Assembly: GCA_016206945.1 (NCBI GenBank)
Contig: JACQQP010000172.1
Coordinates: forward strand, 1-46,422
From: Candidatus Omnitrophota bacterium
Lineage (GTDB): Bacteria; Omnitrophota; Omnitrophia; Omnitrophales; Danuiimicrobiaceae
Direction: 5' to 3'
Length of the DNA stretch: 46,422 nucleotides
The notes under the pieces were generated by a model. The model ran no database searches and was not told the DNA's origin. It worked only from the letters and a program-made list of their open reading frames with translations. Position 1 is the first letter of the stretch. Every line of letters begins with the position of its first letter. Of this stretch, positions 1,788 through 43,016 are shown in pieces. The position numbers and the translations under genes were made by a program.

Positions 1788-3076
1788 CCTTGCGGAGCTA
1801 TTTCCGGTTGCTTGCAGAAGATCGGCCTCATGTTGGCCCTTGGGCGCCGTTTTGGAAGCCGATTCTGAAGGTCGCGTCGTTTGTGTATTTCTTGGGCCTT
1901 CAAATTCACCGTTTGCTTTATCACACGGGCATTTTAAAACAACACACATTGAGCCGTCCTGTTATTAGCGTGGGCAATGTGACGTGGGGAGGAACGGGGA
2001 AAACGCCTATCGTCGAATACGTCGCCCGTTTTTACCTCAACCGTCGCAAGACGCCACTCATTTTGGCGCGCGGCTACGGGCAGGATGAAAGTAAATTGCT
2101 TGCTCGTCAATTGCCTGAAGCACAGTTTGGCATCGGTAAAGACCGCTTGCGAGCGGCCGAGCAGGTTTTGGCCCGGCGCCCCGCCGACGTAATCATTCTA
2201 GATGATGGTTTTCAACATTGGCCGATTAAGCGCGATTTGGACATTGCGGTCATCAATGTCTTGAATCCATTTGGAAATTTGTCCCTCGTCCCCCGTGGAA
2301 TTTTAAGGGAGCCTCTTAAGGGTTTAAGACGAGCAGCGATTGTTGTATTGACCGATGTCAACTTGACGCCACGAAAGGAGCTTGAAGCCTTAAAGGTTAG
2401 AATTCGCGACTTTTCTCCGAAGGTGGAATTTATAGAAGCTTATCGCGAAGCACTTTTCTTCTATCGCCCTGGTTCGCGGGAGCGGCTTGCGGTAAATCGG
2501 CTCGAAGGGGAGCGGGTCACCAGTTTTTCTGGGATCGGAACGCCGCGCTCTTTCCTGATGCTTTTGAATCTGTTGGGGATTAAAACCGTGCGAAATTTCG
2601 AATTCACCGATCACCATAGTTTTACGGAAAAAGAACTCAATGAAATTCTTAGGGTGAAGGAATTAAGTGAATCCAAAGAAGTCATCACGACGGAAAAGGA
2701 TTATTTACGTTGCGAAGAACCGGTCAGGAGAATTGTGAAACCTCTTGTATTGAAATCCCGTTTGCGCCTGACTACCGGAGAAGGACTTCTTCACCAATTT
2801 TTGGGGCACTTTGCAGGTTCGTCTTTATCTCAAGCTTACTCGAGCGGTGAGGGCGAATCTGGGAAACCCAGCTTCAATTCGGGAAGAAAGTTTCATCGAA
2901 GGAGGCGGGATTTTTCGAGCAGGGGAAGTGCCTCTCGTGAAAAAACCATCTTGCAAGATGTAGCCAGGCAAGATCCATTGAAAGAGACGGAAGTAAAAAA
3001 AGGGGTTAACGAAGCCGGTCGCGCAAAAAATGATATGCCGCCAGAAGCTTTGGGGCGGGAGACGCCAAATGTTTGA
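1784..3076 (+). CDS. lpxK: Tetraacyldisaccharide 4'-kinase with a ~85-aa low-complexity C-terminal tail
   Basis: The P-loop VGNVTWGGTGKTP and the ARGYG and ILDDGFQHW motifs identify LpxK. The core ends near residue 345. The tail is Ser/Arg/Gly/Lys/Glu-rich. Confidence 0.9.
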   Translation: MTLRSYFRLLAEDRPHVGPWAPFWKPILKVASFVYFLGLQIHRLLYHTGILKQHTLSRPVISVGNVTWGGTGKTPIVEYVARFYLNRRKTPLILARGYGQDESKLLARQLPEAQFGIGKDRLRAAEQVLARRPADVIILDDGFQHWPIKRDLDIAVINVLNPFGNLSLVPRGILREPLKGLRRAAIVVLTDVNLTPRKELEALKVRIRDFSPKVEFIEAYREALFFYRPGSRERLAVNRLEGERVTSFSGIGTPRSFLMLLNLLGIKTVRNFEFTDHHSFTEKELNEILRVKELSESKEVITTEKDYLRCEEPVRRIVKPLVLKSRLRLTTGEGLLHQFLGHFAGSSLSQAYSSGEGESGKPSFNSGRKFHRRRRDFSSRGSASREKTILQDVARQDPLKETEVKKGVNEAGRAKNDMPPEALGRETPNV

Positions 3077-5018
3077 TTGGCTTGGAGTTTGGCTGGTTCG
3101 AGGTTTGAGTCAAATGTTGCAGGCTATGCCGCTTGATACGGGTCTTTTTCTGGGTCGTGTCGTTGGCGTTTTCCTCGCAAAGACCCACCGTCGTCGTCAA
3201 CTTGCGTATGCGAACTTGAAGGCGGCTTTCGGAGGCCGTTATAGCGCGAGGGAACGTAAGGGAATTGTCCAAAGCGTTTTTCAGAATTTGGCGCAGAATG
3301 TTGTAGAAACGCTCCGCTTTCCGAAAATGAACAAACCGTATTTGGAACGTTACATCGAGGTAGAACATCGGGAACGTTACGAAGAGCTCATTCGGGGAAA
3401 CCATGGAACGGTTCTGATTACACCCCATTTCGGTAACTGGGAGCTTTCCCAAGTCCTTTCCGCGCTGGTTGGAAAGCCTCTGTATGTTTTGGCTCGCGAG
3501 CAGAAGCACAGCCGCTTGGACAATTTTTTAAATGAGCTGCGTTCGGTACATGGTTCTATTTCCATTCGAAGAGGGGGTGGGGTTCGTAATTTGATTCGCG
3601 AACTCCAAAAAGGCGGCACGGTGGGTGTGCTTGGAGACCTTTCAGGCGGGCGCTCAGGTACAGTCGTTCGATTCTTCGGTCGGAAAACCACAGCCCCTTC
3701 CGGAATTTTCCAAATTGCGAGAAAGACCCGTTCCGTGATCCTTCCGTGTTTTATGGTCCGATTGGAAGCAGGGCGGCACCGTGTTTTTGTGGAGCAGCCT
3801 CTCGCCATGGGCGATCCGATAAATAAAACGCTTCGTCTTCAGGAGGACATTCAAAATTATTATCATTTGCTTGAAAACTGGATTACGGATCATCCCGATC
3901 AGTGGTTTTGGGTTTATAAGCGCTGGAAACATTGTTTTACGAAGCGGATCTTAGTTCTTCGCGATGAACGTCGTGGGCACAGCAATCAATCAGAGGCGAT
4001 TGCCCGCGAATTTGAGCGGCTTCATCATACAGGCGGAAGGAGCTATGAATTTGAATTCCAATATGTGGATGTCCGATTCAAAAGCGATTGGTGCAGAAAG
4101 TTATTTTTTCTGTTCGCATTTTTGATTCGCCCTTTCGCTCAAGGAAATCTGAGCTTTCTCGATTTTTTCTTGAAGCCGGAATGTGCTCAGGCTTGTAGCG
4201 CGAGCCATGCGGACATTATTATTTCTGCGGGTTCAAGCCTTGCTCCATTGAATCTTCTGCTCAAAAAAGAAAACCTGGCCCAATCGATTGTGGTGATGAA
4301 GCCTTCCTTTCCTTATCTCTGGCATTTTTTCGATCTTTTAATCGTTCCGGCCCACGATGCGTTGCCCAAGCGCGCCCGTAACATCATTCGGACTTGGGTC
4401 ACGCCTTCTCGAGTAGATCAGGATTTACTTCAAGCTTCCGCTCGGGAATTGAGGAAGGTTGCGCATTTGAGCTCAAATGGTGCAAGACGAATCGGCGTTT
4501 TTATCGGTGGGGATACAAAATCATACCGTTTTCATCCCGGCGATTTTCGCAAATGGCTGATCACATTGAAAAAGTGCGCGGAAGAATCCAATTTTGAACT
4601 GTTAATCACCACCTCAAGAAGGACCGATCCTGAAATTAGTTCGGTGGTCAAGGAGGAGCTTGGGCAACATCCGTTGACGAAACTTTTGGTGATTGCCAAT
4701 GAGTTCAACTTACAGAACGTCACCTATGGCATGCTCGCTCTCACGGACATCGTGCTCGTCACAGAAGATAGCATTTCCATGATTTCTGATGCGGTGAGCG
4801 CTGGGAAAACTGTTTTGGTGATCGAGGTAGGCAATGGAAAGCTACCCAAAAAACACAGCCGATTTCGCGAATCGCTGGAGTCGAATGCTTTAGTCAACCG
4901 GGCGGATGCCTCGAGCTTTCGAGCCAAATTATCCTCTGTGAGTACTGGGGCGAATGGGAGTGTTAGGGAGCGTCAATCCCAACTCATACAAGAGGCGCTT
5001 CGGAAGTTGATATGTTGA
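3069..5018 (+). CDS. Fusion of a lipid A late acyltransferase (LpxL/HtrB family) with an ELM1/GtrOC1-like (DUF1022) domain
   Basis: The N-terminal half has the ITPHFGNWE catalytic motif of the Lip_A_acyltrans family. The C-terminal half has FDLLIVPAHD, VFIGGDTKSY, ITTSRRT and VTEDSISMISDA, as I recall for the ELM1/GtrOC1 family. I chose the start at ATG 3069 (ATGTTTGA overlaps the lpxK stop). The track start 3030 is an alternative. Confidence 0.8.
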   Translation: MFDWLGVWLVRGLSQMLQAMPLDTGLFLGRVVGVFLAKTHRRRQLAYANLKAAFGGRYSARERKGIVQSVFQNLAQNVVETLRFPKMNKPYLERYIEVEHRERYEELIRGNHGTVLITPHFGNWELSQVLSALVGKPLYVLAREQKHSRLDNFLNELRSVHGSISIRRGGGVRNLIRELQKGGTVGVLGDLSGGRSGTVVRFFGRKTTAPSGIFQIARKTRSVILPCFMVRLEAGRHRVFVEQPLAMGDPINKTLRLQEDIQNYYHLLENWITDHPDQWFWVYKRWKHCFTKRILVLRDERRGHSNQSEAIAREFERLHHTGGRSYEFEFQYVDVRFKSDWCRKLFFLFAFLIRPFAQGNLSFLDFFLKPECAQACSASHADIIISAGSSLAPLNLLLKKENLAQSIVVMKPSFPYLWHFFDLLIVPAHDALPKRARNIIRTWVTPSRVDQDLLQASARELRKVAHLSSNGARRIGVFIGGDTKSYRFHPGDFRKWLITLKKCAEESNFELLITTSRRTDPEISSVVKEELGQHPLTKLLVIANEFNLQNVTYGMLALTDIVLVTEDSISMISDAVSAGKTVLVIEVGNGKLPKKHSRFRESLESNALVNRADASSFRAKLSSVSTGANGSVRERQSQLIQEALRKLIC

Positions 5019-7156
5019 GAATCGCGCAGATTTTACCTGCACTCAATGTGGGTGGAGTTGAGACGGGCACCGTTGATTTAGCCAAGGCGCTGAAGAAACG
5101 GGGTGACGAGCCTTTTGTGATCTCAAATGGGGGACCTTTGGTGGATGAGCTTGTTAAAGCGGGGATTTCTCATTTGACACTCCCCGTACATCGTAAGTCC
5201 CTTACCTCTCTTTCCTTAGTACGCCAAATTCAGGCATTTATTGAACGGGAGCGTATTGATATCCTTCATGCGAGGAGTCGCATTCCCGCTTGGCTCGCCT
5301 ATCTCGCCGTGAGGCGAACCAATTGTGACTTCGTGACGACCTGTCACGGTTATTACTCTAAACATTTTTTCAGCCGTGTCATGGGATGGGGAAAAAAGGT
5401 GATCGTGATTTCTCATTCCATTGGACGGCGGATGATTGACGATTTTGGCGTGCCTCCCGAACGCATTCGATTAATTCATCGAGGTGTCGATCTCGCCCAT
5501 TACCCTTTTTCGGCCGACAAATACAAGAAGCCGAAATCAGGACCGTTTCGTATTATTAATGTTGGGCGAATCACACCCATTAAAGGTCATGGAGATTTTA
5601 TCCGGGCGGTTCATCTTCTTTCAAAACGAATTCACAATTTAGAAGTTTCAATCGTGGGCACGCCTGATGACGATAAGGTTTCCTATTTCCGCAATTTAAA
5701 ACTGATGGTCGAAAGGCTGGGCTTGGGATCGCAGGTGAAGTTTTTAGGAACTCGCCGTGACGTGCCCCAACTCCTGCAATCAGCAGACCTCCTGGTTCTT
5801 CCTTCCAGAATTCCCGAGGCCTTCGGGCGTGTTTTGATTGAGGCGGGTGCAGTAGGAACGGTGGCGATCGCCTCTCGAATCGGGGGGATTTTGGATGTCA
5901 TTGATGAAGGTGAAAACGGTCTTTTGTTTTCCCCAGAGAATTTTGAGGAGATGGCGACTTTGATGGAGAAGATTTTGTTGGACCGCTTGCTCGCGAGAAA
6001 ATTATCTTCCAATCTTCGCAGGAAAGTAGAGCATGAATTTTCGCTCGATCAAATGGTTGAGAAAACGAGTGACGTTTATCGGGAAGTGAAACAGCAAAAA
6101 CGAATTTTGATTACGAAGCTGGGCGCTGTGGGTGATTTGGTACTTGCGACTCCGAGTTTTAGAATGGTGAGAAAACGTTTTCCAAACGCACATATTTCGC
6201 TTTTGGTGGATCCAAAATTGATTCCCTTGGTCCAACGTTGTCCCTATTTTGATGAGATCATTGCCTACAATCGTTCCCACTACTCAGATCAGTGGCAGCG
6301 TTTGTTTAAGTTGAGTAAACGGTTGAGACGATGGGGTTTTGATCTATCGATCGACTTCCAGAACAATTGGAGAACCCATGCGCTTGCGTTCTTAGCAGGC
6401 GTTCCAAAGCGGTATGGTTATAAAAGGGGAATCGCTGGTTTCCTGCTCACTCACCCCGTCGTCTTTTGGGACAGAAGTCTCAGTCCTGTGGAGCATCAAT
6501 TTCAAGTGCTCAAAAGGGCTGGAGTCATCCAATTTGAGAATGCGATCGAACTTTGGCCGGATTCAGAAGCGGATGCTCACATATCAAAACAACTGAGAGA
6601 AGCAAAAAATGGTGCGGCCCCTATTCGCATCGGATTGGTTTTAGGGGCTAGTCCACGCTGGCCAACGAAACAGTGGCCTGTGGAACGTTTTGTGGAACTG
6701 TCCAAGCGCTTAAGGGACGAATTGGATTGTCAGATTGTCTTGATCGGGCGAGAAGAAGACGAGAGTCTGGCACGTGTGTTTAAGCGAGATCATCTAAAGG
6801 GCATTCTCAACTTGACGGGAAAAACGAGTCTGCCGCAATTGGTCAGCCTCGTTAAACAACTTGATCTTTTGGTAACCGGGGACACGGCGCCCCTGCATAT
6901 GGCAAGTGCGTTCGATACAAAAACGGTCGCTTTATTTGGTCCCACAGAACCCAAACGTCATATGCCGCCGGGAGAGGGCCATATCGCTCTTGTGAAACGG
7001 ATTCCCTGTCAGCCTTGCTACAGCGGAACGTGCCGAAATTCGATAAAGCTCCTTTGCCTCAAGGAAATTAGTGTGGACGAAGTTTTTGAAACGATTAAAC
7101 AACAACTTCAGTTGGCAGGGGCTCGGCCTCTCGGCTCAAGCCAGGTGATGGGATAA
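5012..7156 (+). CDS. Fusion of a GT4 glycosyltransferase (N-terminal) with a GT9 heptosyltransferase-family domain (C-terminal)
   Basis: Residues 1-360 look like group-1 GT (GGVETGTVDLAKAL, EAFGRVLIEAGAVGT, ENGLLF). From residue ~365 the protein shows GT9 signatures: KRILITKLGAVGDLVLATPSF, TGDTAPLHMASA and LFGPT. Confidence 0.85.
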   Translation: MLRIAQILPALNVGGVETGTVDLAKALKKRGDEPFVISNGGPLVDELVKAGISHLTLPVHRKSLTSLSLVRQIQAFIERERIDILHARSRIPAWLAYLAVRRTNCDFVTTCHGYYSKHFFSRVMGWGKKVIVISHSIGRRMIDDFGVPPERIRLIHRGVDLAHYPFSADKYKKPKSGPFRIINVGRITPIKGHGDFIRAVHLLSKRIHNLEVSIVGTPDDDKVSYFRNLKLMVERLGLGSQVKFLGTRRDVPQLLQSADLLVLPSRIPEAFGRVLIEAGAVGTVAIASRIGGILDVIDEGENGLLFSPENFEEMATLMEKILLDRLLARKLSSNLRRKVEHEFSLDQMVEKTSDVYREVKQQKRILITKLGAVGDLVLATPSFRMVRKRFPNAHISLLVDPKLIPLVQRCPYFDEIIAYNRSHYSDQWQRLFKLSKRLRRWGFDLSIDFQNNWRTHALAFLAGVPKRYGYKRGIAGFLLTHPVVFWDRSLSPVEHQFQVLKRAGVIQFENAIELWPDSEADAHISKQLREAKNGAAPIRIGLVLGASPRWPTKQWPVERFVELSKRLRDELDCQIVLIGREEDESLARVFKRDHLKGILNLTGKTSLPQLVSLVKQLDLLVTGDTAPLHMASAFDTKTVALFGPTEPKRHMPPGEGHIALVKRIPCQPCYSGTCRNSIKLLCLKEISVDEVFETIKQQLQLAGARPLGSSQVMG

Positions 7157-7209
7157 AAGAGCGCTTTGCTTTGATATTAAGCGCTCTTTTAAACGAGGTG
7201 GTGGGATGA
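7153..7209 (+). repeat. Short SD-box cassette G (hairpin flanked by a direct duplication of the SD box)
   Basis: AGGTGATGGGAT (7143-7154, containing the upstream stop TAA 7154-7156) and AGGTGGTGGGAT (7196-7207, followed by ATG 7206) flank a 10-bp hairpin, AAAAGAGCGC 7155-7164 / GCGCTCTTTT 7181-7190. The right part resembles 19566-19595. Confidence 0.5.
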
Positions 7210-9208: not shown

Positions 9209-10247
9209 ATGCACCAACCTCAAGCGAATTTTAGTGACCCGTACGGATCGAATCGGTGATGTTGTTTTGTCGACGCCTGTTTTTCAGGCGGTCAAGGAAA
9301 GATATCCTGAGAGCCATCTTGCGGCCCTTGTCCTTAAAGAAACGGAGGCCGTTGTTCGCGGCAATCCCTCGCTGAACCAAGTGATTGTCTATGACAAAAA
9401 AGGACATGAGAAAAGCTGGTGGCGAAGCTTTTTATTTGGTGTCAGATTAAGAAAAGAGAACTTTGACATTGTGATTCACCTTCACCCCACGAACCGGGTT
9501 CATTTCATTTCGTGGCTTGCCAACATTCCCGTTCGCATCGGTTATCGGCGAAAAAACCATTATCTTCTCACTCATGTTATTGAAGAGAAAAAGTGGGAAG
9601 GAAGAAAACACGAAGCCGAATACAATTTTGATCTCCTCGCGTTGATTGATGTTTCCAAACCTGAGGAACTTGAGCTTTATTTCCCGCTGCAGGATAAAGA
9701 TCGTGAACTGTTGATGAACGTGTTGCCTTCGGGTTTTAATGGGAATCATTACGTCGTGTTTCATCCGAGTGCCAGTTGTATTTCGAAAAGGTGGTCTCCT
9801 GAACGATTGGCAAACGTGGCGGACCGCTTGGTGCAAAATTATGGCGTGCGAGCCGTTATTGTTGGGGAAGGAGCGGGGACTTTACATGCCGCACAAATGC
9901 AGAAATTTATGAGGAAAGAAGCGCTTAATTTGGGGGGAAAACTAAATCTGGGCATGCTCGCTTGGCTTTTGAAGGGTGCGCGGCTTTTGATTTCCAATGA
10001 TTCAGGACCTGTTCATGTTGCCTCTGCGGTGGGAACGCCTGTGATTTCAATTTTCGGCAGGAATCAACCTGGTCTAGGCACGACGCGTTGGAGGCCCATT
10101 TCGCCAAACAGTTCTTTCCTTCAAAAAGATGTCGGATGCATTGAATGTCTCGCCCATAATTGTCAAATTGATTTCAAATGCCTTAAAGACTTACAAGTAG
10201 AAGAAGTGCTTGAGGAAGCGAAGCGGTATGAGCCATTTTTGGTTTAG
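9192..10247 (+). CDS. GT9 glycosyltransferase (LPS heptosyltransferase family)
   Basis: Motifs are RILVTRTDRIGDVVLSTPVFQAVK, SNDSGPVHVASAVG and IFG. It overlaps the upstream gene by 17 nt. Confidence 0.85.
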   Translation: MMRPIECTNLKRILVTRTDRIGDVVLSTPVFQAVKERYPESHLAALVLKETEAVVRGNPSLNQVIVYDKKGHEKSWWRSFLFGVRLRKENFDIVIHLHPTNRVHFISWLANIPVRIGYRRKNHYLLTHVIEEKKWEGRKHEAEYNFDLLALIDVSKPEELELYFPLQDKDRELLMNVLPSGFNGNHYVVFHPSASCISKRWSPERLANVADRLVQNYGVRAVIVGEGAGTLHAAQMQKFMRKEALNLGGKLNLGMLAWLLKGARLLISNDSGPVHVASAVGTPVISIFGRNQPGLGTTRWRPISPNSSFLQKDVGCIECLAHNCQIDFKCLKDLQVEEVLEEAKRYEPFLV

Positions 10248-11393: not shown

Positions 11394-12212
11394 ATGAAAT
11401 TAAGCAACTATTTCTTTTTGATCTTCCTGTTTTTTTCGTCGGTAGGTTTTCAAGGATGTGGCGGAGTCAAAACTCAGAAATTAAATCTGGTTGCCAATGA
11501 GGTCAAGAGTCAGATTGTCGGGAATGCACCTTTTACGATTCAAGAAGGGGAGAAGCTTCGGTTTAGCGTTCGGTGGCTTGGCATGGAAGTGGGCACCGCT
11601 GAAGCAGTGGTCAAAGGAATTGAGAAAGTCAACGGGCGGGACGCCTATCATATTGCGGCTTATGCCCGCTCGAACTCCTTGATCGACCTGATTTATCCGG
11701 TTCGTGATGAGCACCATACCTATGTGGACACGGAACATTTTCATTCGCTCCGCTACGAAAAAATTCTCCGGGAGGGAACTTTTCGTGCTGACGAAGTGAT
11801 GGAATACGATCAGGAAAATCATACCGCAACCTATTTCTCGAGGAAGAATAAAACCAAGAAAAAAATGTTTATTGCAAAGAACACCCATGACCAGGTTTCC
11901 GCCGCCTATTGGTTTCGTACGCAGCCGATGAAGATAGGAGATAGGATTCATATTCCTGTCGAAGCTGACGAGAAAAATTGGGATTTAGAAGTTCGCGTGA
12001 CTCAAATGGATCGGGTTGAAATCAAAGGACTGGGGACTTTTGATGCATTTCAAATCGAACCGATGGCCAGTTTTCAAGGAATTTTTATTCGACGCGGAAA
12101 AATCCGCGGCTGGTTGGGAACTGACGAAAAACGACTTCCCCTGATGATGAAAACTAAAGTCCCTGTTCTTGGGACAGTTACTGTTGTATTAACTCGTTAT
12201 GAGGGTTGGTAG
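11394..12212 (+). CDS. DUF3108-like lipoprotein
   Basis: A signal peptide with the lipobox FQGC is present (MKLSNYFFLIFLFFSSVGFQGCGG). The stretch GEKLRFSVRWLGMEVGTAEAVV...YPVRDEH fits the DUF3108 pattern as I recall it. Confidence 0.65.
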   Translation: MKLSNYFFLIFLFFSSVGFQGCGGVKTQKLNLVANEVKSQIVGNAPFTIQEGEKLRFSVRWLGMEVGTAEAVVKGIEKVNGRDAYHIAAYARSNSLIDLIYPVRDEHHTYVDTEHFHSLRYEKILREGTFRADEVMEYDQENHTATYFSRKNKTKKKMFIAKNTHDQVSAAYWFRTQPMKIGDRIHIPVEADEKNWDLEVRVTQMDRVEIKGLGTFDAFQIEPMASFQGIFIRRGKIRGWLGTDEKRLPLMMKTKVPVLGTVTVVLTRYEGW

Positions 12213-16584: not shown

Positions 16585-17434
16585 TATTATTTTCGGCGAT
16601 CCAAACCAGTTTGTGTTCATTGCGGGGCCCTGTGTCATCGAAGGAGAAGAGAGCACACTTCGGCATGCCGAGCGAATTTCTAGGATGGTACAAGAACTCA
16701 ATATTCCTTATGTGTTTAAGTCGAGTTACGACAAAGCGAATCGTTCTTCAATCCATTCTTATCGAGGTCCTGGAATTGAGGACGGACTTAAGATTCTTGC
16801 GAAAGTAAAGAAGGAATTTCAAATTCCTGTTTTAAGCGATGTCCATACCGTTGAGGAGGTCGACCGAGCGGCCGAAGTACTCGACATTCTTCAAGTGCCT
16901 GCCTTTCTTTCCCGCCAAACAGATCTCGTCGTTGCCTGTGCAAAGACTCGAAAAATCGTGAATGTGAAAAAAGGACAATTTCTTTCTCCATGGGACATGA
17001 AGAATGTCGTTGAAAAGATTGAGTCGGTTGGAAACAAAAATATTTTATTAACCGAGAGAGGCGCTTCCTTTGGTTATCGGAATTTAGTCAGCGATTTCCG
17101 GTCGATTCCAATTATGCAAGGTTTTGGTTATCCCGTTGTTTTTGATGTGACTCACTCGGTTCAAATCCCGGGCGGTTTAGGACATGCTTCGGGAGGGCAA
17201 GCCGAATTTATTCCTACGTTGGCACGATGTGCCGTTGCGGCCGGGGTGGACGCCGTTTTCATGGAGGTTCATGAAAATCCCAAGGTCGCCAAATCGGATG
17301 GGCCCAATAATTTAGCGCTTTCTGATTTAAAAGATATTCTTCAAGTTTTGAAACGGATTCGTGCAGCAGCACCTTTAGTCAGAGAAGAAACTTCGAAAAG
17401 GAAGCGTTCACTCAAAAAAACGGTGACGGTGTGA
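16562..17434 (+). CDS. kdsA: 3-deoxy-8-phosphooctulonate synthase (Kdo-8-P synthase)
   Basis: The start is at ATG 16562 (MKQVRLGN), inside the track ORF 16526. Motifs are [20 protein letters not shown] and FDVTHSVQ. It has a basic C-terminal tail. Confidence 0.9.
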
Positions 17435-17442
17435 TGGGATGA
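17428..17442 (+). promoter_or_regulatory. Extended SD + start box GGTGTGATGGGATGA (native junction, no cassette)
   Basis: The kdsA stop TGA lies at 17432-17434 inside the box. ATG 17439 starts kdsD. The GTGATGGGATGA core matches 1776-1787. Confidence 0.6.
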
Positions 17443-18404
17443 AACAAGACCGCTTGCTTGCGAAAAAAATTCTGAGGACGGAGGCTCAAGCCATTCACAA
17501 ACTCATGACGCGAATTAACCGTGAGTTTGAGGAAGCGCTTGATCTATTGGAGCGCGCCAGCGGCCGTGTCATTGTGACGGGAATGGGAAAGCCCGGTTTC
17601 ATCGCTCGCAAAATCGCGGCTACGTTTGCTTCTACGGGAACTCCCAGTCTCTTCCTGCATCCAGCGGAGGCGGTTCACGGCGATCTTGGAATGGTGACAA
17701 GACAGGATGTAGTCCTTGCTATTTCCAATAGCGGAGAGACGGAGGAAATCACAAAATTGCTCTCTACGATTAAAAAGATTGGGGCCAAGCTGATTGCTTT
17801 GACGGGCAATGTTAAGTCTACGTTGGCGAAAAATTCCGACGTCGTATTGAACATTGGGTTAGAAAAGGAAGCGTGTCCTTGGAATTTAGCTCCTACCGCA
17901 TCAACGACAGCATCTTTAGCCATGGGTGATGCATTGGTCATTTGTTTGGCAAAGAGAAAGGGGTTTCGCGAAGAGGACTTCGCCTTTCTTCATCCTGGAG
18001 GCAACCTCGGCAAGAAATTACTTAAAGTGCGTGATTTAATGAGGCGGGGAAAGTCACATCCGATTGTGCCCGGAACGGCGACAGTGAAAAAAGCGCTCTT
18101 GGCCATTACCAGTGCTCGCGCAGGTTCCTGTACCGTTGTGGATCGAGATGGAAAACTCAAGGGAATTTTTACGGATGGAGATTTAAGGCGCCATCTTAAG
18201 GAAAATGGCGTATCAATTTTGTCACAGCCAATTGAACCTTTTGCAACGAAACAACCCGTGACCATTCAAGAGGACAGATTAGCTGCGGAGGCGCTTCAAC
18301 TTTTGCGCGATCGGCACATTGATGAGTTGCCAGTTGTTGACCGTAAAGGGCGCGCCGTTGGCCTGCTGGATGTGCAGGATCTGTTAAAAGCAGGCTTTGT
18401 GTGA
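17439..18404 (+). CDS. kdsD: Arabinose-5-phosphate isomerase (KpsF/GutQ family: SIS domain + tandem CBS)
   Basis: The SIS motif VIVTGMGKPGFIARKIAATFASTG and the GETEE motif are present. The C-terminal CBS pair includes LPVVD. Confidence 0.9.
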   Translation: MKQDRLLAKKILRTEAQAIHKLMTRINREFEEALDLLERASGRVIVTGMGKPGFIARKIAATFASTGTPSLFLHPAEAVHGDLGMVTRQDVVLAISNSGETEEITKLLSTIKKIGAKLIALTGNVKSTLAKNSDVVLNIGLEKEACPWNLAPTASTTASLAMGDALVICLAKRKGFREEDFAFLHPGGNLGKKLLKVRDLMRRGKSHPIVPGTATVKKALLAITSARAGSCTVVDRDGKLKGIFTDGDLRRHLKENGVSILSQPIEPFATKQPVTIQEDRLAAEALQLLRDRHIDELPVVDRKGRAVGLLDVQDLLKAGFV

Positions 18405-19345
18405 GCAAGACAAGGAAACACCGATTTCTGCTCTACCTTGGTCTTGAAGTGATCAGACACATTGTCTTGGTGCTGCCAAGGTGGCTCAATTTGGCGATCG
18501 CGCGAGCTCTTGGCTTTGCAACCTTCTGGGTTCTTCCCAAGGAACGAGCCAAGACGGTGCGCCATTTGAAGGAAGCTTTTGGCGATGAAAAAACTGAGAG
18601 CGAACTTCGGAAAATCGGCGAGAAGGTTTTTATTCATTTGACTCAGTCTGCAATTGACGTCCTTTGTTTCCCGCGGCTCAATCGTAAGCGCGTAGAGCGC
18701 CTTGTTGATTTGGAGGGCGGCACTGAAAGGCTAGATCGTGCGCTGGCGCGCGGAAATGGCGTGATCGCATTGACAGGTCACATTGGAAACTGGGAACTCT
18801 TGGCTTCGTATTTTCGATTTCTGGGCTATCCAGGACGCTTGGTAGGTCGAAGGATTTATTACGAGCGGTTCGATCAGGTACTAGTTTCGCTTAGAAAGAG
18901 TGCTCTTGTCTCGACCCTTTATCGGGATGAATCTCCACGCCAGGTCTTGGCCGAACTTCGAGCGAACCATGTCGTGGGAATGTCTGCCGACCAGGACATT
19001 GATAGCGTGGAGGGAGTTTTTGTTCCTTTTTTTGGAAAATGGGCTTGGACACCGACAGGTCCAGCAAAAATCGCATTGGCCAGCGGGGCAGCTATTGTTC
19101 CAGCCTTTATGCTTCACGATCGGAATCGATACCGATTATTCATTGAAGAACCTATTTGGCCCGTTGAAAGCGTTTCAAAGGAAAAAGCGATCGGCATGAT
19201 GACGGAGGCTTGGTCTCGAGTCGTTGAAAGTTACATTCGACGTTATCCAGATCAATGGGTTTGGATGCACCGCCGCTGGAAAACCCAGGCGGACGTTGCC
19301 GATCGCTTTAGGGATGCATCAGAACTACAAGAAGTAAAGTTATGA
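18401..19345 (+). CDS. Lipid A biosynthesis late acyltransferase (LpxL/HtrB family)
   Basis: The LTGHIGNWE catalytic motif and the RYPDQWVWMHRRWK C-terminal motif are present. The GTG start overlaps the kdsD stop (GTGTGA). Confidence 0.85.
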   Translation: MSKTRKHRFLLYLGLEVIRHIVLVLPRWLNLAIARALGFATFWVLPKERAKTVRHLKEAFGDEKTESELRKIGEKVFIHLTQSAIDVLCFPRLNRKRVERLVDLEGGTERLDRALARGNGVIALTGHIGNWELLASYFRFLGYPGRLVGRRIYYERFDQVLVSLRKSALVSTLYRDESPRQVLAELRANHVVGMSADQDIDSVEGVFVPFFGKWAWTPTGPAKIALASGAAIVPAFMLHDRNRYRLFIEEPIWPVESVSKEKAIGMMTEAWSRVVESYIRRYPDQWVWMHRRWKTQADVADRFRDASELQEVKL

Positions 19346-19467
19346 TCCCATCTGAAAGAAGAGAACAGAGAACGGTGTACAGAGTACAGAAGATTAGGTC
19401 CCGTTCTTTTTTACTCTGTTCTCTGTACTCTGTTCTCTGTACTCTGTTTCTAGAGGTGATGGGATGA
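19342..19467 (+). repeat. SD-box cassette C (family I, 126 nt) with a 41-codon ATGA-to-ATGA mini-ORF
   Basis: ATG 19342 overlaps the upstream stop (ATGA), and it ends GAGGTGATGGGATGA. The interior has heptamer arrays, ACAGAGW on one arm (about 19364-19391) and the complementary WCTCTGT x5 (19413-19447). It aligns without gaps, at about 80% identity, with 22856-22981. Confidence 0.8.
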
Positions 19468-19595
19468 TCCCAACCACCTGTTTTTCTCGCGTTTCATTCA
19501 GGTGGTTGAACTTTGAAACGCGAGAATTTCTTTCAGAAATTAAAGGCCGCATTAACTTAAAACGAGGCGTTCTTTTAAAACAGGTGGTGGGATGA
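19464..19595 (+). repeat. SD-box cassette F (family III-like, 132 nt) with a 43-codon ATGA-to-ATGA mini-ORF
   Basis: It starts ATGATCCCAACCACCTGTTT and ends AAACAGGTGGTGGGATGA. ATG 19464 overlaps the stop of cassette C, and its own TGA overlaps the lptC ATG 19592. Interleaved inverted repeats are present: 19471-80/19499-508 and 19484-96/19514-26. Confidence 0.65.
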
Positions 19596-20479
19596 TCCGC
19601 AAATTTGTTGTCATTTCGGTCATTTTAGTTTCGGCTTATGTGGCCTTGATTCAATGGAAACTATGGATGCACGTGCTTTCCGGTACGCAGTTTTGGAAGG
19701 TGCCATCCAGTGAGACGCAGGACGGCTCAGCGCAGCGCGTCTATAGTTTCTCGTTTTCAAAATACACCGAAGATGGAAAAAAAGAACTCGAAATCGAGGG
19801 AGATTCGGCGGATATTCTTTCGCAAAATGTGGGGCTTATCAATGTGATCGCAAAGGCCTATGCGGAGGAATCTCCCGTAACGATTACGGCTGATCAAGGT
19901 TCCATCGATCGTTCCACAAACAACATCCTTTTGCATAAGAATGTCGTGGCCACCACAGAGAATGGAACACGTTTGCTCACCGAAAAACTTGAAATACATC
20001 CAGACAGCAAGAATTTGGCTACCGATGTAGAAGCAAAGGTCAAGAAAGACAATATCAACATCCAAGGAATCGGCGCTCAGAGTGACTCCCAATTGAACAA
20101 AGTGACCTTTAAGAAAAACGTAACTGTAGTCATTCAAAGTCCTGAGGCAAAATCAAAATCACCCACGATCATTACCTCTGATGGGCCGCTCGATTTGGAC
20201 TATAAGCGGGACGTTGCCCACTTTTCAAAAAATGTGGTGGCGCGGCACGATCAGGGAGTATTGACTGCGGATTACATGGATGTGCTCTATCATAAAGAAA
20301 CGAGTCGCCTTTCGAAAATTATTGCACGCGGGAACGTGGTGATCGTGAGTAAAGATGGGACCAAGACGTTTAGCGACAGCGCTGTTTATTTGGCCAAAGA
20401 AAAGCGCATCGTCTTGGGTGGTGATGTAGAAACACAGTACGATCCGAGCAGCGCAGGTGTAGATGGAACTTTGTTTTAA
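19592..20479 (+). CDS. lptC: LPS export periplasmic protein, LptC-like with a second OstA/LptA-like domain (possible LptC-LptA fusion)
   Basis: It has an N-terminal TM anchor. There are two OstA-type repeats (ITADQGSIDRSTNNILLHKNVV and LTADYMDVLY...ARGNVVIV...AVYLAKEKRIVLGGDV). At 295 aa it is larger than either LptC or LptA alone. It sits directly upstream of lptB. Confidence 0.65.
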   Translation: MIRKFVVISVILVSAYVALIQWKLWMHVLSGTQFWKVPSSETQDGSAQRVYSFSFSKYTEDGKKELEIEGDSADILSQNVGLINVIAKAYAEESPVTITADQGSIDRSTNNILLHKNVVATTENGTRLLTEKLEIHPDSKNLATDVEAKVKKDNINIQGIGAQSDSQLNKVTFKKNVTVVIQSPEAKSKSPTIITSDGPLDLDYKRDVAHFSKNVVARHDQGVLTADYMDVLYHKETSRLSKIIARGNVVIVSKDGTKTFSDSAVYLAKEKRIVLGGDVETQYDPSSAGVDGTLF

Positions 20480-22741: not shown

Positions 22742-22859
22742 ATGATTCCATCACCTGTTTGCAAAGAGCGCGCATTTGGTTCTAAACATCACGCGCTCTT
22801 TGATCCTTTAAGAAAAGATCTCGCCACAACGTGGCGAGACAAACAGGTGATTGGGATGA
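22742..22859 (+). repeat. SD-box cassette E (family III-like, 118 nt)
   Basis: It starts ATGATTCCATCACCTGTTT and ends AAACAGGTGATTGGGATGA. The 13-bp terminal inverted repeat is interrupted by one extra T. Internal hairpins lie at 22762-72/22792-802 (11 bp) and 22819-25/22833-39 (7 bp). Confidence 0.65.
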
Positions 22860-22981
22860 TCCCATCTGAAAGAAGAGAACAGAGTACAGAGTACAGAGAA
22901 CAGAAGGTGAGTTTCCATTCTTTTTTACTCTGTTCTCTGTCATCAGTACTCTGTAATGTTTTCCTTCAGGTGGTGACATGA
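22856..22981 (+). repeat. SD-box cassette D (family I, 126 nt)
   Basis: It has the same length and frame as 19342-19467. It encodes MIPSERREQSTEYREQKVSFHSFLLCSLSSVLCNVFLQVVT, and its TGA overlaps the yvcK-like ATG 22978. Because of the extra T in cassette E, E and D read as a single 79-codon ORF. Confidence 0.8.
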
Positions 22982-24244: not shown

Positions 24245-24523
24245 GTGGAGCATTCCAAGGTAATTGAAAAGAAATTTGTGGTTCGAAGCGAGTTGGGCTT
24301 GCATGCTCGCCCTGCCGCTTTGTTTGTGCGTACGGCGAATCGGTTTCAAAGTGATATCACCGTTCAGAAAGGGAGACAGAAAGTGAATGGCAAGTCGATT
24401 ATGGGTATCATGATGCTTGCCGCGGGACCGGGAAGTTCTATCACCGTCAGAGTTGTTGGACCCGATGCGCAACGCGCGATGGCTGAAATTGAGAAGTTGA
24501 TGGATAACAAAATGAATCAGTAA
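24245..24523 (+). CDS. ptsH: Phosphocarrier protein HPr
   Basis: It is 92 aa. The GLHARPA motif holds the active-site His, and GKSIMGIM holds the regulatory Ser. The start is GTG. Confidence 0.9.
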   Translation: MEHSKVIEKKFVVRSELGLHARPAALFVRTANRFQSDITVQKGRQKVNGKSIMGIMMLAAGPGSSITVRVVGPDAQRAMAEIEKLMDNKMNQ

Positions 24524-24526
24524 GGC

Positions 24527-24563
24527 GAACCCCGTTAGATTTCTAATCGCAGCGGGGTTCTTT
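24527..24563 (+). terminator. Hairpin between ptsH and ptsI (possible partial terminator or attenuator)
   Basis: An 8-bp GC-rich stem pairs GAACCCCG (24527-34) with CGGGGTTC (24553-60). The loop is 18 nt, and only TTT follows the stem. Confidence 0.4.
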
Positions 24564-24628
24564 AAAACGGTTGAAAAATACAGGTAGGTTTTAACGGTGA
24601 AGAAACATATGTTGGAAGATCTAATGGG

Positions 24629-30787: not shown

Positions 30788-31882
30788 TCATTCATTAGCG
30801 CGGTCCAGGAAGAAGAACGTTCCAAAACCGAACATAAAATTGGGAGACCAAGTACTCAAAATAGGAAAAAGTTTTCCTGCTTTCCCAAGTGCGAGCAGAA
30901 TAGCGCCCGTAATGTGAAAGAGGAATACAAAGGCAAGACAAGTTAGTACGTTCAAGGCAATCATGCGGCGCCTTGTTGTTTTGGCTAAAAAGGGCACCGT
31001 CAGAAACATAACCACCAAACTTTGCCAGGGAAAGGCAAGTTTTTGATGGAGTGTAACCAACTCGGCATCTGCCTTGATTCCATTTTCCCTGAGTTTCGCA
31101 ATATACTCTTTTAGATCTCGGTAACTGATCGCAATTCCCTCGTTCACAGCTTTCAGGAAATCATTGGGCGTTTCGTTAATCTCTGGGTAAACAATCACGG
31201 CTTGAAACGTGGGTTCGCCCAGCATGTCGCCTTTCTGTTCTAGCGCGTAATCAGTCGCTTGGCGGAGTTCCCAGTGGGAGCCCATCCACTTGGCTTCGCG
31301 AGCCACGGTTTTCTTTTTTACGTTCCTTTTTGCGTCTAGCCAAAGGACAATAAAATCTTCGAACCGTTCTTCTTTTGCGTGGAAAACGCGCCCATAGTAA
31401 AGCCGGTTTTTACCGCCGTAGTAGGTGACGTTTGCGAATACCCCTCGTTTTTCATCCGTTTGCTTCTTTTCAATCCATTCGTTTAAGAGTTGTTCCGCTT
31501 TCCGCGAAGTGTTCGGCACGATTTGGTCGCTCACCAGGAAAGAAATGACGCCAACGACAAATCCAACGAAAATAATGGGTCGAATCATCGAAGTGATTTC
31601 TAAACCTGCAACCTTCATCGCAATGAGTTCGTTGTGGTAATTAAAAGTACTGAGGACATAGATGGTGGCAAGGAGACACGCCCATGGAATTATGGAAATG
31701 AAAGTTTGCGGTGTCAGGACCAAATAATACAGAAGAATATGGTGAAAAGCAGTTTTGTTTCGGATCATCGCGTCCAAGTAGTCAAAAATATCCGCCACGA
31801 ACACCAAGAGAATTAAAGTGACACAACAAAAAAAGATGGGAAATAAAAGCTGTTTTGCAAGATATCGGTCAAGAATCTTCAT
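30788..31882 (-). CDS. LPS export ABC transporter permease (LptF/LptG, YjgP/YjgQ family)
   Basis: MKILDRYLAKQLLFPIFF is the typical N-terminus of this family, and the protein has multiple TM segments with a large periplasmic loop. The start is placed at ATG 31882, immediately after GGAGGTGATGGG, rather than at the track's 31921. Confidence 0.85.
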   Translation of the reverse strand: MKILDRYLAKQLLFPIFFCCVTLILLVFVADIFDYLDAMIRNKTAFHHILLYYLVLTPQTFISIIPWACLLATIYVLSTFNYHNELIAMKVAGLEITSMIRPIIFVGFVVGVISFLVSDQIVPNTSRKAEQLLNEWIEKKQTDEKRGVFANVTYYGGKNRLYYGRVFHAKEERFEDFIVLWLDAKRNVKKKTVAREAKWMGSHWELRQATDYALEQKGDMLGEPTFQAVIVYPEINETPNDFLKAVNEGIAISYRDLKEYIAKLRENGIKADAELVTLHQKLAFPWQSLVVMFLTVPFLAKTTRRRMIALNVLTCLAFVFLFHITGAILLALGKAGKLFPILSTWSPNFMFGFGTFFFLDRANE

Positions 31883-32016
31883 CCCATCACCTCCACGGCA
31901 AGAGCGCGTTTTAAGAGGCAATCTTGCACTCTGAGTGAAGTGCGTTCTTGCATTTTCTTTGAAAATACGCCGCCCATCTTAAGAAAAGGCGGCGTACGGG
32001 GAGGTGATAGGATCAT
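31879..32016 (-). repeat. SD-box cassette A (family II, 138 nt) with an intact 45-codon ATGA-to-ATGA mini-ORF
   Basis: On the minus strand, ATGA (32016-32013) overlaps the comF stop. The left end is GATCCTATCACCTCC and the right end is GGAGGTGATGGGATGA, overlapping the lptF/G start. Two hairpins lie at 31966-74/31988-96 and 31898-907/31942-51. It aligns without gaps, at about 85% identity, with 42879-43016. Confidence 0.85.
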
Positions 32017-42878: not shown

Positions 42879-43016
42879 TTGATCCCATCACCTCCGCGTA
42901 CGCCGCCTCCTCTTAAGATGGGCGGCGTATGTTTGTAGAAAATGCAAGAGCACGCTTTATTCAGAGTGCAAGATTGCTTCTTTAAGCGTGCTCTTGCGGT
43001 AGAGGTGATGGGATGA
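42879..43016 (+). repeat. SD-box cassette B (family II, 138 nt), with its mini-ORF disrupted
   Basis: The left end is TTGATCCCATCACCTCC and the right end is AGAGGTGATGGGATGA, with ATG 43013 starting nadX. Hairpins lie at 42899-907/42921-29 (9 bp) and 42944-55/42986-97 (12 bp). It is the same length as 31879-32016, but has TTG in place of ATG and an in-frame TAG at 42936-38. Confidence 0.85.

Follow-up and report, generated by a model that had tools for sequence, protein, structure and literature searches.

Palindromic start-codon cassettes in an Omnitrophota lineage: probable MITE-like elements whose mini-ORFs may relay translational coupling

Why should a unit of 126 nucleotides (nt), built from two complementary heptamer arrays and beginning and ending on ATGA, stand twice among the tightly packed genes of one bacterial contig? 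The contig in question, JACQQP010000172.1 of Candidatus Omnitrophota assembly GCA_016206945.1, was analysed as one stretch of 46,422 nt, here called the window; it has a G+C content of 47% and belongs to a metagenome-assembled genome (MAG) with the locus-tag prefix HY584. One copy of the unit, which we call family I, lies between an lpxL-like acyltransferase gene and lptC, and the other lies in front of yvcK. We propose that family I is probably a non-autonomous palindromic insertion element resembling a MITE (miniature inverted-repeat transposable element), and that it is a start-codon cassette tolerated by its host through a translated mini-open reading frame (mini-ORF) that would relay coupling to the displaced gene. 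It is part of a larger superfamily of cassettes that, within what was sampled, is restricted to a single Omnitrophota lineage.

The two family I copies in the window, a and b, form an ungapped direct repeat identical at 104 of 126 positions (82.5%, 22 differences), with a chance probability of about 2e-41 per position pair and about 2e-32 after correction for all pairs in the window. The same MAG has a third copy on a different contig (16 kb), known here from its protein sequence (P0121, HY584_06245, 72 aa), in which it is fused in frame behind a 31-codon cassette; the last 41 aa are 88% identical to copy a and equal in length. All three copies are exactly 126 nt, or 41 codons. A first-pass annotation, made from the letters alone, had drawn the outline of copy a well. 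The acyltransferase ORF does end on the ATGA at which the unit begins (19342-45), GAGGTGATGGGATGA does form its far end, the 41-aa ORF exists with the sequence then given, the match to copy b is ungapped with the number of identities then counted, and further copies of the kind it anticipated include at least the third.

The complementary arrays described in that annotation, with a spacer of about 20 nt, were recovered by Tandem Repeats Finder (TRF) as period-7 arrays at 19360-19390 (AGAGAAC, 4.4 copies) and 19414-19448 (CTCTGTT, 5.0 copies), separated by about 21 nt. On direct inspection neither the ACAGAGW nor the WCTCTGT heptamers show a stop triplet (TAA, TAG or TGA) in any frame, and the core of family I is therefore translatable as it stands. 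Because seven is 1 mod 3, one heptamer gained or lost would break the frame and with it the relay proposed below. This agrees with the equal length of the three copies, and it speaks against variation driven by heptamer slippage, an earlier suggestion that finds no support here: a 7-nt change would break a frame that is conserved across the whole superfamily.

That superfamily is defined by its ends. At least seven cassettes, including a remnant, are present in the window, and more occur in related Omnitrophota. They are palindromes of 80-210 nt with the ends TCCC(A/C)(T/C)CACC...GGTG(A/G)(T/G)GGGA, flanked on either side by ATGA (or TGA) and positioned at the start codon of the downstream gene, between co-directional genes. 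The right end AGGTGRTGGGATGA occurs 12 times in the window against an expectation of 0.54, and several of these lie on the other strand, where they form the left ends of further intergenic units. Between 9 and 12 of the 12 terminal bases match in the terminal inverted repeats (TIRs) across the superfamily, and when termini were sought as inverted repeats with ATGA not required, they were always flanked by TGA...TGA. In family I the left terminus of copy a fits the superfamily over just its first 7 nt (TCCCATC/GATGGGA), beyond which lies the long internal hairpin.

Comparison with relatives shows these cassettes as insertions. Syntenic loci (numbered with the prefix L) were collected from NCBI, ENA and JGI assemblies through YvcK homologues of 82-94% identity. 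At the lpxL/lptC junction, L120, L122 and L123 have a bare ATGA overlap (e.g. TTTATGATCCGAAAG), the window has copy a followed by a family II cassette (II_a), and L126 and L131 have different, unrelated cassettes. At least nine distinct relatives (L122, L123, L132, L133, L136-L139 and L165) have an empty hprK/yvcK junction, which six different cassettes fill in L120, L126, L131, L135, L128 and the window. Here an insertion can be read exactly, as L139 has GATTAGTCATGA directly followed by AATTT and L135 has a 77-nt body plus TGA between the same two sequences. Similarly, at the lptF/G junction L120, L122 and L123 have nothing but an NTGA overlap, where the window has the family III cassette III_a. 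The closest relative (L128-L130, YvcK 94%) carries a II_a-like cassette before yvcK and no family I copy. Close relatives lack family I at the corresponding junctions; it is hence no dedicated regulator of lptC or yvcK.

ATGA or TGA flanks the cassettes on both sides and a single ATGA stands at the empty orthologous sites, a pattern in which target-site duplication (TSD) is indistinguishable from a strict target requirement combined with a copy borne by the element. Families are also used in both orientations, the L126 body being the reverse complement of the L131 body and family III of the window being the reverse of the L120/II_b type, which fits a transposon with TIRs and TSDs. In combination, the small size and inverted termini, the short direct repeats, the empty sites and the use of both orientations make up the signature expected of a MITE. 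No cassettes were seen in relatives with YvcK identity of 78% or less (L165 and a group at about 70%).

What distinguishes these elements is how they treat the reading frame. Detection of the cassettes relied on nothing but their termini, with the ATGA-to-ATGA distance tabulated afterwards; this distance is 2 mod 3 in 17 of 17 cassettes that directly precede a gene. Together with the 122 of copy a there are twelve distinct lengths (80, 83, 98, 101, 107, 110, 113, 116, 122, 128, 134 and 206), every one of which is 2 mod 3 (P ~2e-6). With a length of this class, the old ATG and the TGA overlapping the new ATG share one frame. The single exception, family II cassette II_b (114), runs in frame through the next ATG into copy b, and the composite length of 236 obeys the rule; GenBank has the pair as one 79-aa hypothetical protein, HY584_05985. 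The used frame is free of internal stops in 16 of 18 cassettes, compared with 4 of 18 when the body is reversed (Fisher P = 1.3e-4), and for random sequence of cassette length the expected open fraction is 8-16%. In frames +1 and +2, which are rarely open, there are usually 2-5 stops. Across about 20 cassettes, then, the frame and openness of the mini-ORF are, judging from this pattern, under selection, and the sequence of the peptide is not conserved. These results reach beyond the first-pass annotation in three respects: there is a superfamily with shared inverted termini, its members are start-codon insertions with empty sites, and the mini-ORF is not a by-product.

The termini also bear on how the transcript would fold. 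Each right terminus offers a strong Shine-Dalgarno (SD) sequence (AGGTGAT or GGAGGTG) followed by ATG, and the left terminus is its complement, containing AUCACCUCC, which resembles the 16S anti-SD. The sequence AUCACCUCC is the universal 3' end of 16S rRNA. In the predicted folds the window cassettes have an outer stem made from the two termini and one to three inner hairpins (z -3.8 to -10.7), and in 19 of 19 cassettes examined, with overall folds of -30 to -109 kcal/mol, the downstream SD is wholly or largely paired; in copy a the paired part is only about half of the 12 nt preceding the ATG. Sense and antisense strands show no overall bias in folding energy (-1.6 +/- 1.0 kcal/mol), so that the palindromy is best attributed to termini acting at the DNA level and is not assignable to RNA-level selection.

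We hypothesize that the TCCC...GGGA body would insert into NTGA, meaning a start codon and the A that follows it, which is often the ATGA stop/start overlap of two coupled genes, and that the TGA or ATGA would be duplicated in the process. The upstream gene would retain its stop codon, and the original start codon and ribosome-binding site (RBS) would now open a mini-ORF running through the element. The right terminus would provide an SD and the A of a new ATG, and this ATG would overlap the TGA of the mini-ORF. In the folded RNA the downstream SD would be locked in the outer stem by the anti-SD-like left terminus. A ribosome that finishes the upstream gene, or that starts at the original RBS, would translate the mini-ORF, melt the hairpin, terminate on AUGA and re-initiate on the displaced gene, with the result that coupling would be relayed and the insertion would be near-neutral. 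If mini-ORF translation does relay coupling in this way, a premature stop or frameshift within a cassette should be selected against. Such a relay would match the termination-reinitiation reported at ATGA overlaps (PMC6728339), as well as the proposals made for the mycobacterial MIRUs discussed below (PMC12548453, PMC3184786). From the comparative patterns, we infer translation, re-initiation and mobilisation by a transposase acting in trans.

Of the competing explanations, the one that survives best keeps the mobile element and removes the ribosome from it. Cassettes would be selfish palindromic MITEs, tolerated but untranslated, with the downstream start served by the SD of the right terminus and the frame pattern reflecting descent from a few masters. 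The inverted termini, ATGA direct repeats, empty sites and use of both orientations are as much expected here as under our proposal; the lack of a folding bias, and hence palindromy at the DNA level, agrees with it, as does the persistence of two copies with in-frame stops. We nevertheless consider it unlikely. Descent from a few masters has to produce twelve distinct lengths that all fall in the same class modulo 3, openness is specific to the orientation that is used, and a downstream SD that is predicted to be locked in a stem would block the independent initiation on which this explanation depends.

A second alternative, to which we give a rather small chance, holds that the cassettes are co-opted RNA regulators, the stem being a site for RNase III or other processing, a stability element, or a gate in which SD and anti-SD respond to temperature or ribosome supply. 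Long, near-perfect stems and a sequestered SD would suit such a role, and the sense strand of family I outdoes its antisense strand by 6-8 kcal/mol in folding energy, with a larger number of G-U pairs. Moreover, Correia and ERIC MITEs reportedly affect mRNA processing (review PMC3184786). However, the cassettes are patchily distributed among close relatives, with different families at the same junction, which speaks against a conserved regulatory role, and the differences between family I copies are uncompensated; ACGGTG in copy a and CATCAG in copy b both look like decay from a more perfect master. Processing or gating of this kind could coexist with the proposed relay and is not needed for the data.

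Still less probable is the explanation closest to that of the first-pass annotation, in which family I is an intergenic hairpin and nothing more: it would terminate or pause transcription between the lipid A genes and lptC, its heptamers would slip, and its ORF would be accidental. The tandem-heptamer arms and the absence of a conserved peptide are compatible with this, and the predicted hairpins are very stable (-58.2 and -56.3 kcal/mol for copies a and b, z = -5.8 and -5.3, a stability that none of 200 shuffles reached), or about -57 kcal/mol with z about -5.5 for the two copies together, which bears out the long hairpin noted earlier. The pairing in several registers foreseen for that hairpin was not borne out, as the partition function assigns 94% (copy a) and 82% (copy b) of arm pairs to a single register and leaves the 7-nt-shifted register unpopulated. 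Termination fares no better: no site resembling an intrinsic terminator occurs on the + strand of 19342-19467 or 22856-22981, where the stem is followed by AGAGGTGATGGG and by no T-run, and both copies stand in tightly packed co-directional gene strings that would need read-through. The equal length of three copies, their single dominant register and the maintenance of frame and openness across the superfamily likewise tell against a bare structure. Rfam gave no match in the window at the gathering threshold, and below it only generic microRNA-hairpin matches of 16-31 bits against cut-offs of 60-100.

That family I is instead an ordinary small gene for a 41-aa membrane-active peptide is scarcely credible, for although all three copies keep the ORF open, its C-terminal half is hydrophobic and Cys/Leu-rich, and GenBank lists it as a hypothetical protein, copies a and b differ by 5 synonymous and 13 non-synonymous codons, the mini-ORFs have no Pfam match, an exhaustive HMMER search of the peptide against 1.84 billion representatives returned full-length matches in the same MAG only, and the shared ends MIPS... 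and ...EVMG are translated termini common to unrelated cassettes. The other HMMER matches are unrelated heptamer arrays in translation. With the mini-ORF as query, word-indexed protein searches found P0121 only and missed P0124 of the window itself, a sign of their low sensitivity for short queries. The codon differences and the lack of a Pfam match agree with the view taken in the first-pass annotation that the charged and hydrophobic halves of the peptide are simply the translated purine-rich and pyrimidine-rich arms.

Several observations count against the proposal of a mobile cassette with a relaying mini-ORF. No transposase, and no longer element with cassette termini, was seen in the window or across related loci totalling about 0.86 Mb; nor were there terminus pairs 300-4000 nt apart, the expected mark of an autonomous element. 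Because members of a family share ancestry, the cassettes counted are not wholly independent of one another, and the test on distinct lengths is a partial remedy. Two cassettes with in-frame stops, III_b and the one at L131:15173, persist, from which it follows that the relay is dispensable at some sites and that the rule is not absolute. Family I itself is known from three copies, all in one MAG. Its 20-nt left end, TCCCATCTGAAAGAAGAGAA, had no match in JGI metagenome contigs, and neither that scan nor the exhaustive HMMER protein search found other strains carrying it. A scan of genome contigs with CTCTGTWCTCTGTWCTCTGT returned at least 119 loci, most of them unrelated tandem arrays of heptamers spread over many phyla; none of the matches listed had cassette termini and the scan did not reach this lineage, so the distribution of family I is poorly sampled.

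Hairpins of the form (ACAGAGN)n...(NCTCTGT)n that lack cassette termini occur between genes in other Omnitrophota MAGs (L034, ~5380-5470; L116, ~1730-1910), which hints that the family I core was captured between cassette termini. Similar intergenic hairpins, again without these termini, are found in two MAGs labelled Alphaproteobacteria and Rickettsiales (L042 and L103), and plain CTCTGTW tandem arrays are common, among the matches listed, in MAGs of Saprospiraceae, Bacteroidales and Acidobacteriota. Reportedly, Mazel et al. described heptanucleotide short tandemly repeated repetitive (STRR) sequences from heterocystous cyanobacteria in 1990. STRR, a term also used in PMC5088731, resemble family I in being tandem heptamer arrays in intergenic DNA, but they are plain arrays of other units, whereas family I joins two complementary arrays in one hairpin framed by termini and an ORF.

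The closest known counterparts of the cassettes are MIRUs, or mycobacterial interspersed repetitive units. In the accounts of Supply et al. (1997) given by PMC12548453 and PMC3184786, these intergenic, intra-operon repeats of the 40-100-bp class are apparently mobile, the ends of their ORF overlap the flanking stop and start codons (-4 nt, ATGA type), and expression of the target gene is, to the extent these sources relate, little disturbed. Start-codon insertion, a small overlapping ORF, tetranucleotide direct repeats and empty sites in related species are shared with the cassettes, a likeness of description between the unrelated phyla Actinomycetota and Omnitrophota, where phylum and G+C content (47% here) give no reason to expect sequence homology. 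Unlike MIRUs, the cassettes have long, near-perfect inverted repeat termini that form an SD/anti-SD pair, comprise several families that share their termini only, and use one family in both orientations. A further difference is that no same-family tandem arrays, of the variable-number tandem repeat (VNTR) kind, were seen here; only cassettes of different families are juxtaposed, I and II at 19342-19595 and II and I at 22742-22981.

With bacterial MITEs such as Correia/NEMIS, ERIC and Nezha (PMC3184786), the cassettes have in common small size, TIRs, short target repeats, the lack of a transposase, long RNA hairpins and filled and empty sites. They measure 84-210 nt, under ~400 bp, lack a transposase gene, carry TIRs and flanking direct repeats, and are dispersed in polymorphic copies. 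In contrast to those MITEs, they target the start codon (NTGA), keep a mod-3 length and an open frame, rebuild SD and ATG from their terminus, and yielded no cognate insertion sequence in the loci searched. The palindromic elements of Rickettsia (Ogata 2000, as cited in PMC3184786) are described there as inserting inside genes and becoming part of the host protein; they too are mobile palindromic repeats that survive by staying translatable, but the cassettes remain separate mini-cistrons between genes. The REP2 repeats of Neisseria and the inverted-repeat (IR) sequences of Borrelia (PMC3184786) offer a further comparison, in which REP2, unlike the cassettes, has a promoter, no TIRs and no ATGA-to-ATGA ORF. 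In the literature on Omnitrophota repeats, and on MITEs tied to translational coupling, we found no description of these elements. They are best filed as MIRU-like and MITE-like, of a kind that is known but little studied and not previously described in this phylum. Insertion of the relay type at a start codon appears to have been described so far only for mycobacterial MIRUs, with little mechanistic follow-up.

If the relay operates as proposed, a transposable element would have become near-invisible through termination-reinitiation: stop, start and SD would all be restored, at the cost of a throw-away peptide. The cassettes would then be a second example beside MIRUs, unrelated and far more structured, and their inverted termini, several families, both orientations and mod-3 signature make the idea testable. 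The strategy may be widespread in compact genomes with many ATGA overlaps. More speculatively, and with considerable doubt, we suggest that the cassettes are convergent "translation-dependent" mobile elements, whose SD/anti-SD termini lock an RBS that is opened only by a ribosome on the element's own mini-ORF. Were that so, they would be natural mobile bicistronic-design units, and the host could gain a heritable retuning, insertion by insertion, of the stoichiometry of coupled genes (lptC and lptF/G; HPr kinase and YvcK). They may also serve as ready-made natural designs for coupling cassettes in synthetic operons.

There are practical consequences for annotation and assembly as well. Cassettes are currently annotated as hypothetical proteins (HY584_05985, HY584_06245), and they break metagenome assemblies. 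Three independent assemblies of the closest relative (L128, L129 and L130; contig ends, positions 1-100) end within the cassette that lies upstream of yvcK, a pattern that fits assembly breaks caused by repeats.

Table 1. Positions of cassettes and related features in the window.
Feature	Position	Strand	Description
LpxL-type acyltransferase ORF	18401-19345	+	Pfam Lip_A_acyltrans; ends in TGA of ATGA 19342-19345
Family I copy a	19342-19467	+	ATGA (lpxL-like stop and mini-ORF start) to ATGA (mini-ORF stop and next cassette start); open 41-codon ORF
Copy a 5' arm	19360-19392	+	ACAGAGW heptamers, one degenerate (ACGGTG)
Copy a 3' arm	19413-19447	+	five WCTCTGT heptamers
Copy a right terminus GAGGTGATGGGATGA	19453-19467	+	SD-like AGGTGAT, then ATG overlapping TGA
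Family I copy b	22856-22981	+	open 41-codon ORF ending in yvcK-start ATGA (22978)
Family II II_a	19464-19595	+	directly 3' of copy a; open 43-codon ORF ending in lptC-start ATGA (19592)
Family II II_b	22742-22859	+	directly 5' of copy b; distance 114 (0 mod 3), extra T in right terminus
Family III III_a	31879-32016	-	between double-zinc-ribbon/phosphoribosyltransferase (PRTase) gene and lptF/G; open 45-codon ORF
Family III III_b	42879-43016	+	start of aspartate-dehydrogenase-like gene; left flank TTGA; one internal stop (TAG) in frame
Probable cassette remnant	7143-7209	+	3' hairpin and right terminus of a II_a-like cassette (GAGGTGGTGGGATGA)

Two of the cassettes in Table 1 deserve comment. 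The TTGA flank of III_b is probably the former TTG start of the aspartate-dehydrogenase-like gene; although an in-frame TAG interrupts this cassette, the SD of that gene is still buried by the outer stem (-76 to -80 kcal/mol). Near the remnant, the gene for a GT4/GT9 fusion glycosyltransferase (5012-7156) ends in ...QVMG and a stop on AGGTGATGGGATAA, which equals the right terminus of a cassette with ATGA changed to ATAA; the 3' hairpin and right end of the II_a-like cassette come immediately afterwards. The region 7143-7209 looks like decayed or partly deleted cassettes, one of which was possibly absorbed as the C-terminus of the GT4/GT9 gene. Two junctions free of cassettes, waaA/lpxK (1774-1787) and kdsA/kdsD (17429-17442), read AGGTGATGGGATGA and GTGTGATGGGATGA and are near-identical to the cassette right terminus; either the elements mimic an RBS preferred in this lineage, or these are footprints of lost cassettes.

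In the relative L126, a 203-nt cassette (9795-10004) and an adjacent spacer that is not a cassette (11540-11659) share the motif GTCATTGCGAG...CTCGCAATGAC, which looks like a second, nested family of palindromic repeats.

The genes around the cassettes form a lipopolysaccharide (LPS) and phosphotransferase system (PTS) string that includes waaA, lpxK, glycosyltransferases, pyrG, kdsA, kdsD, the lpxL-like gene, an lptC-lptA fusion, lptB, ptsN, hprK, yvcK, ptsH and ptsI. Two of its ORFs are unusual fusions: one of 662 aa (3030-5018) combines a lipid A acyltransferase domain with one that is ELM1-like (Mito_fiss_Elm1), and the 295-aa "lptC" (19592-20479) has an LptC domain followed by an LptA/LptD_N domain. 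The spacer between ptsH and ptsI (24523-24628 in the window, 1640-1763 in L128) contains a hairpin, GAACCCCGTTAGAT...CGGGG, that is conserved in the window and its 94% relative. This hairpin does not belong to the cassettes, and its role may be regulatory or terminator-like.

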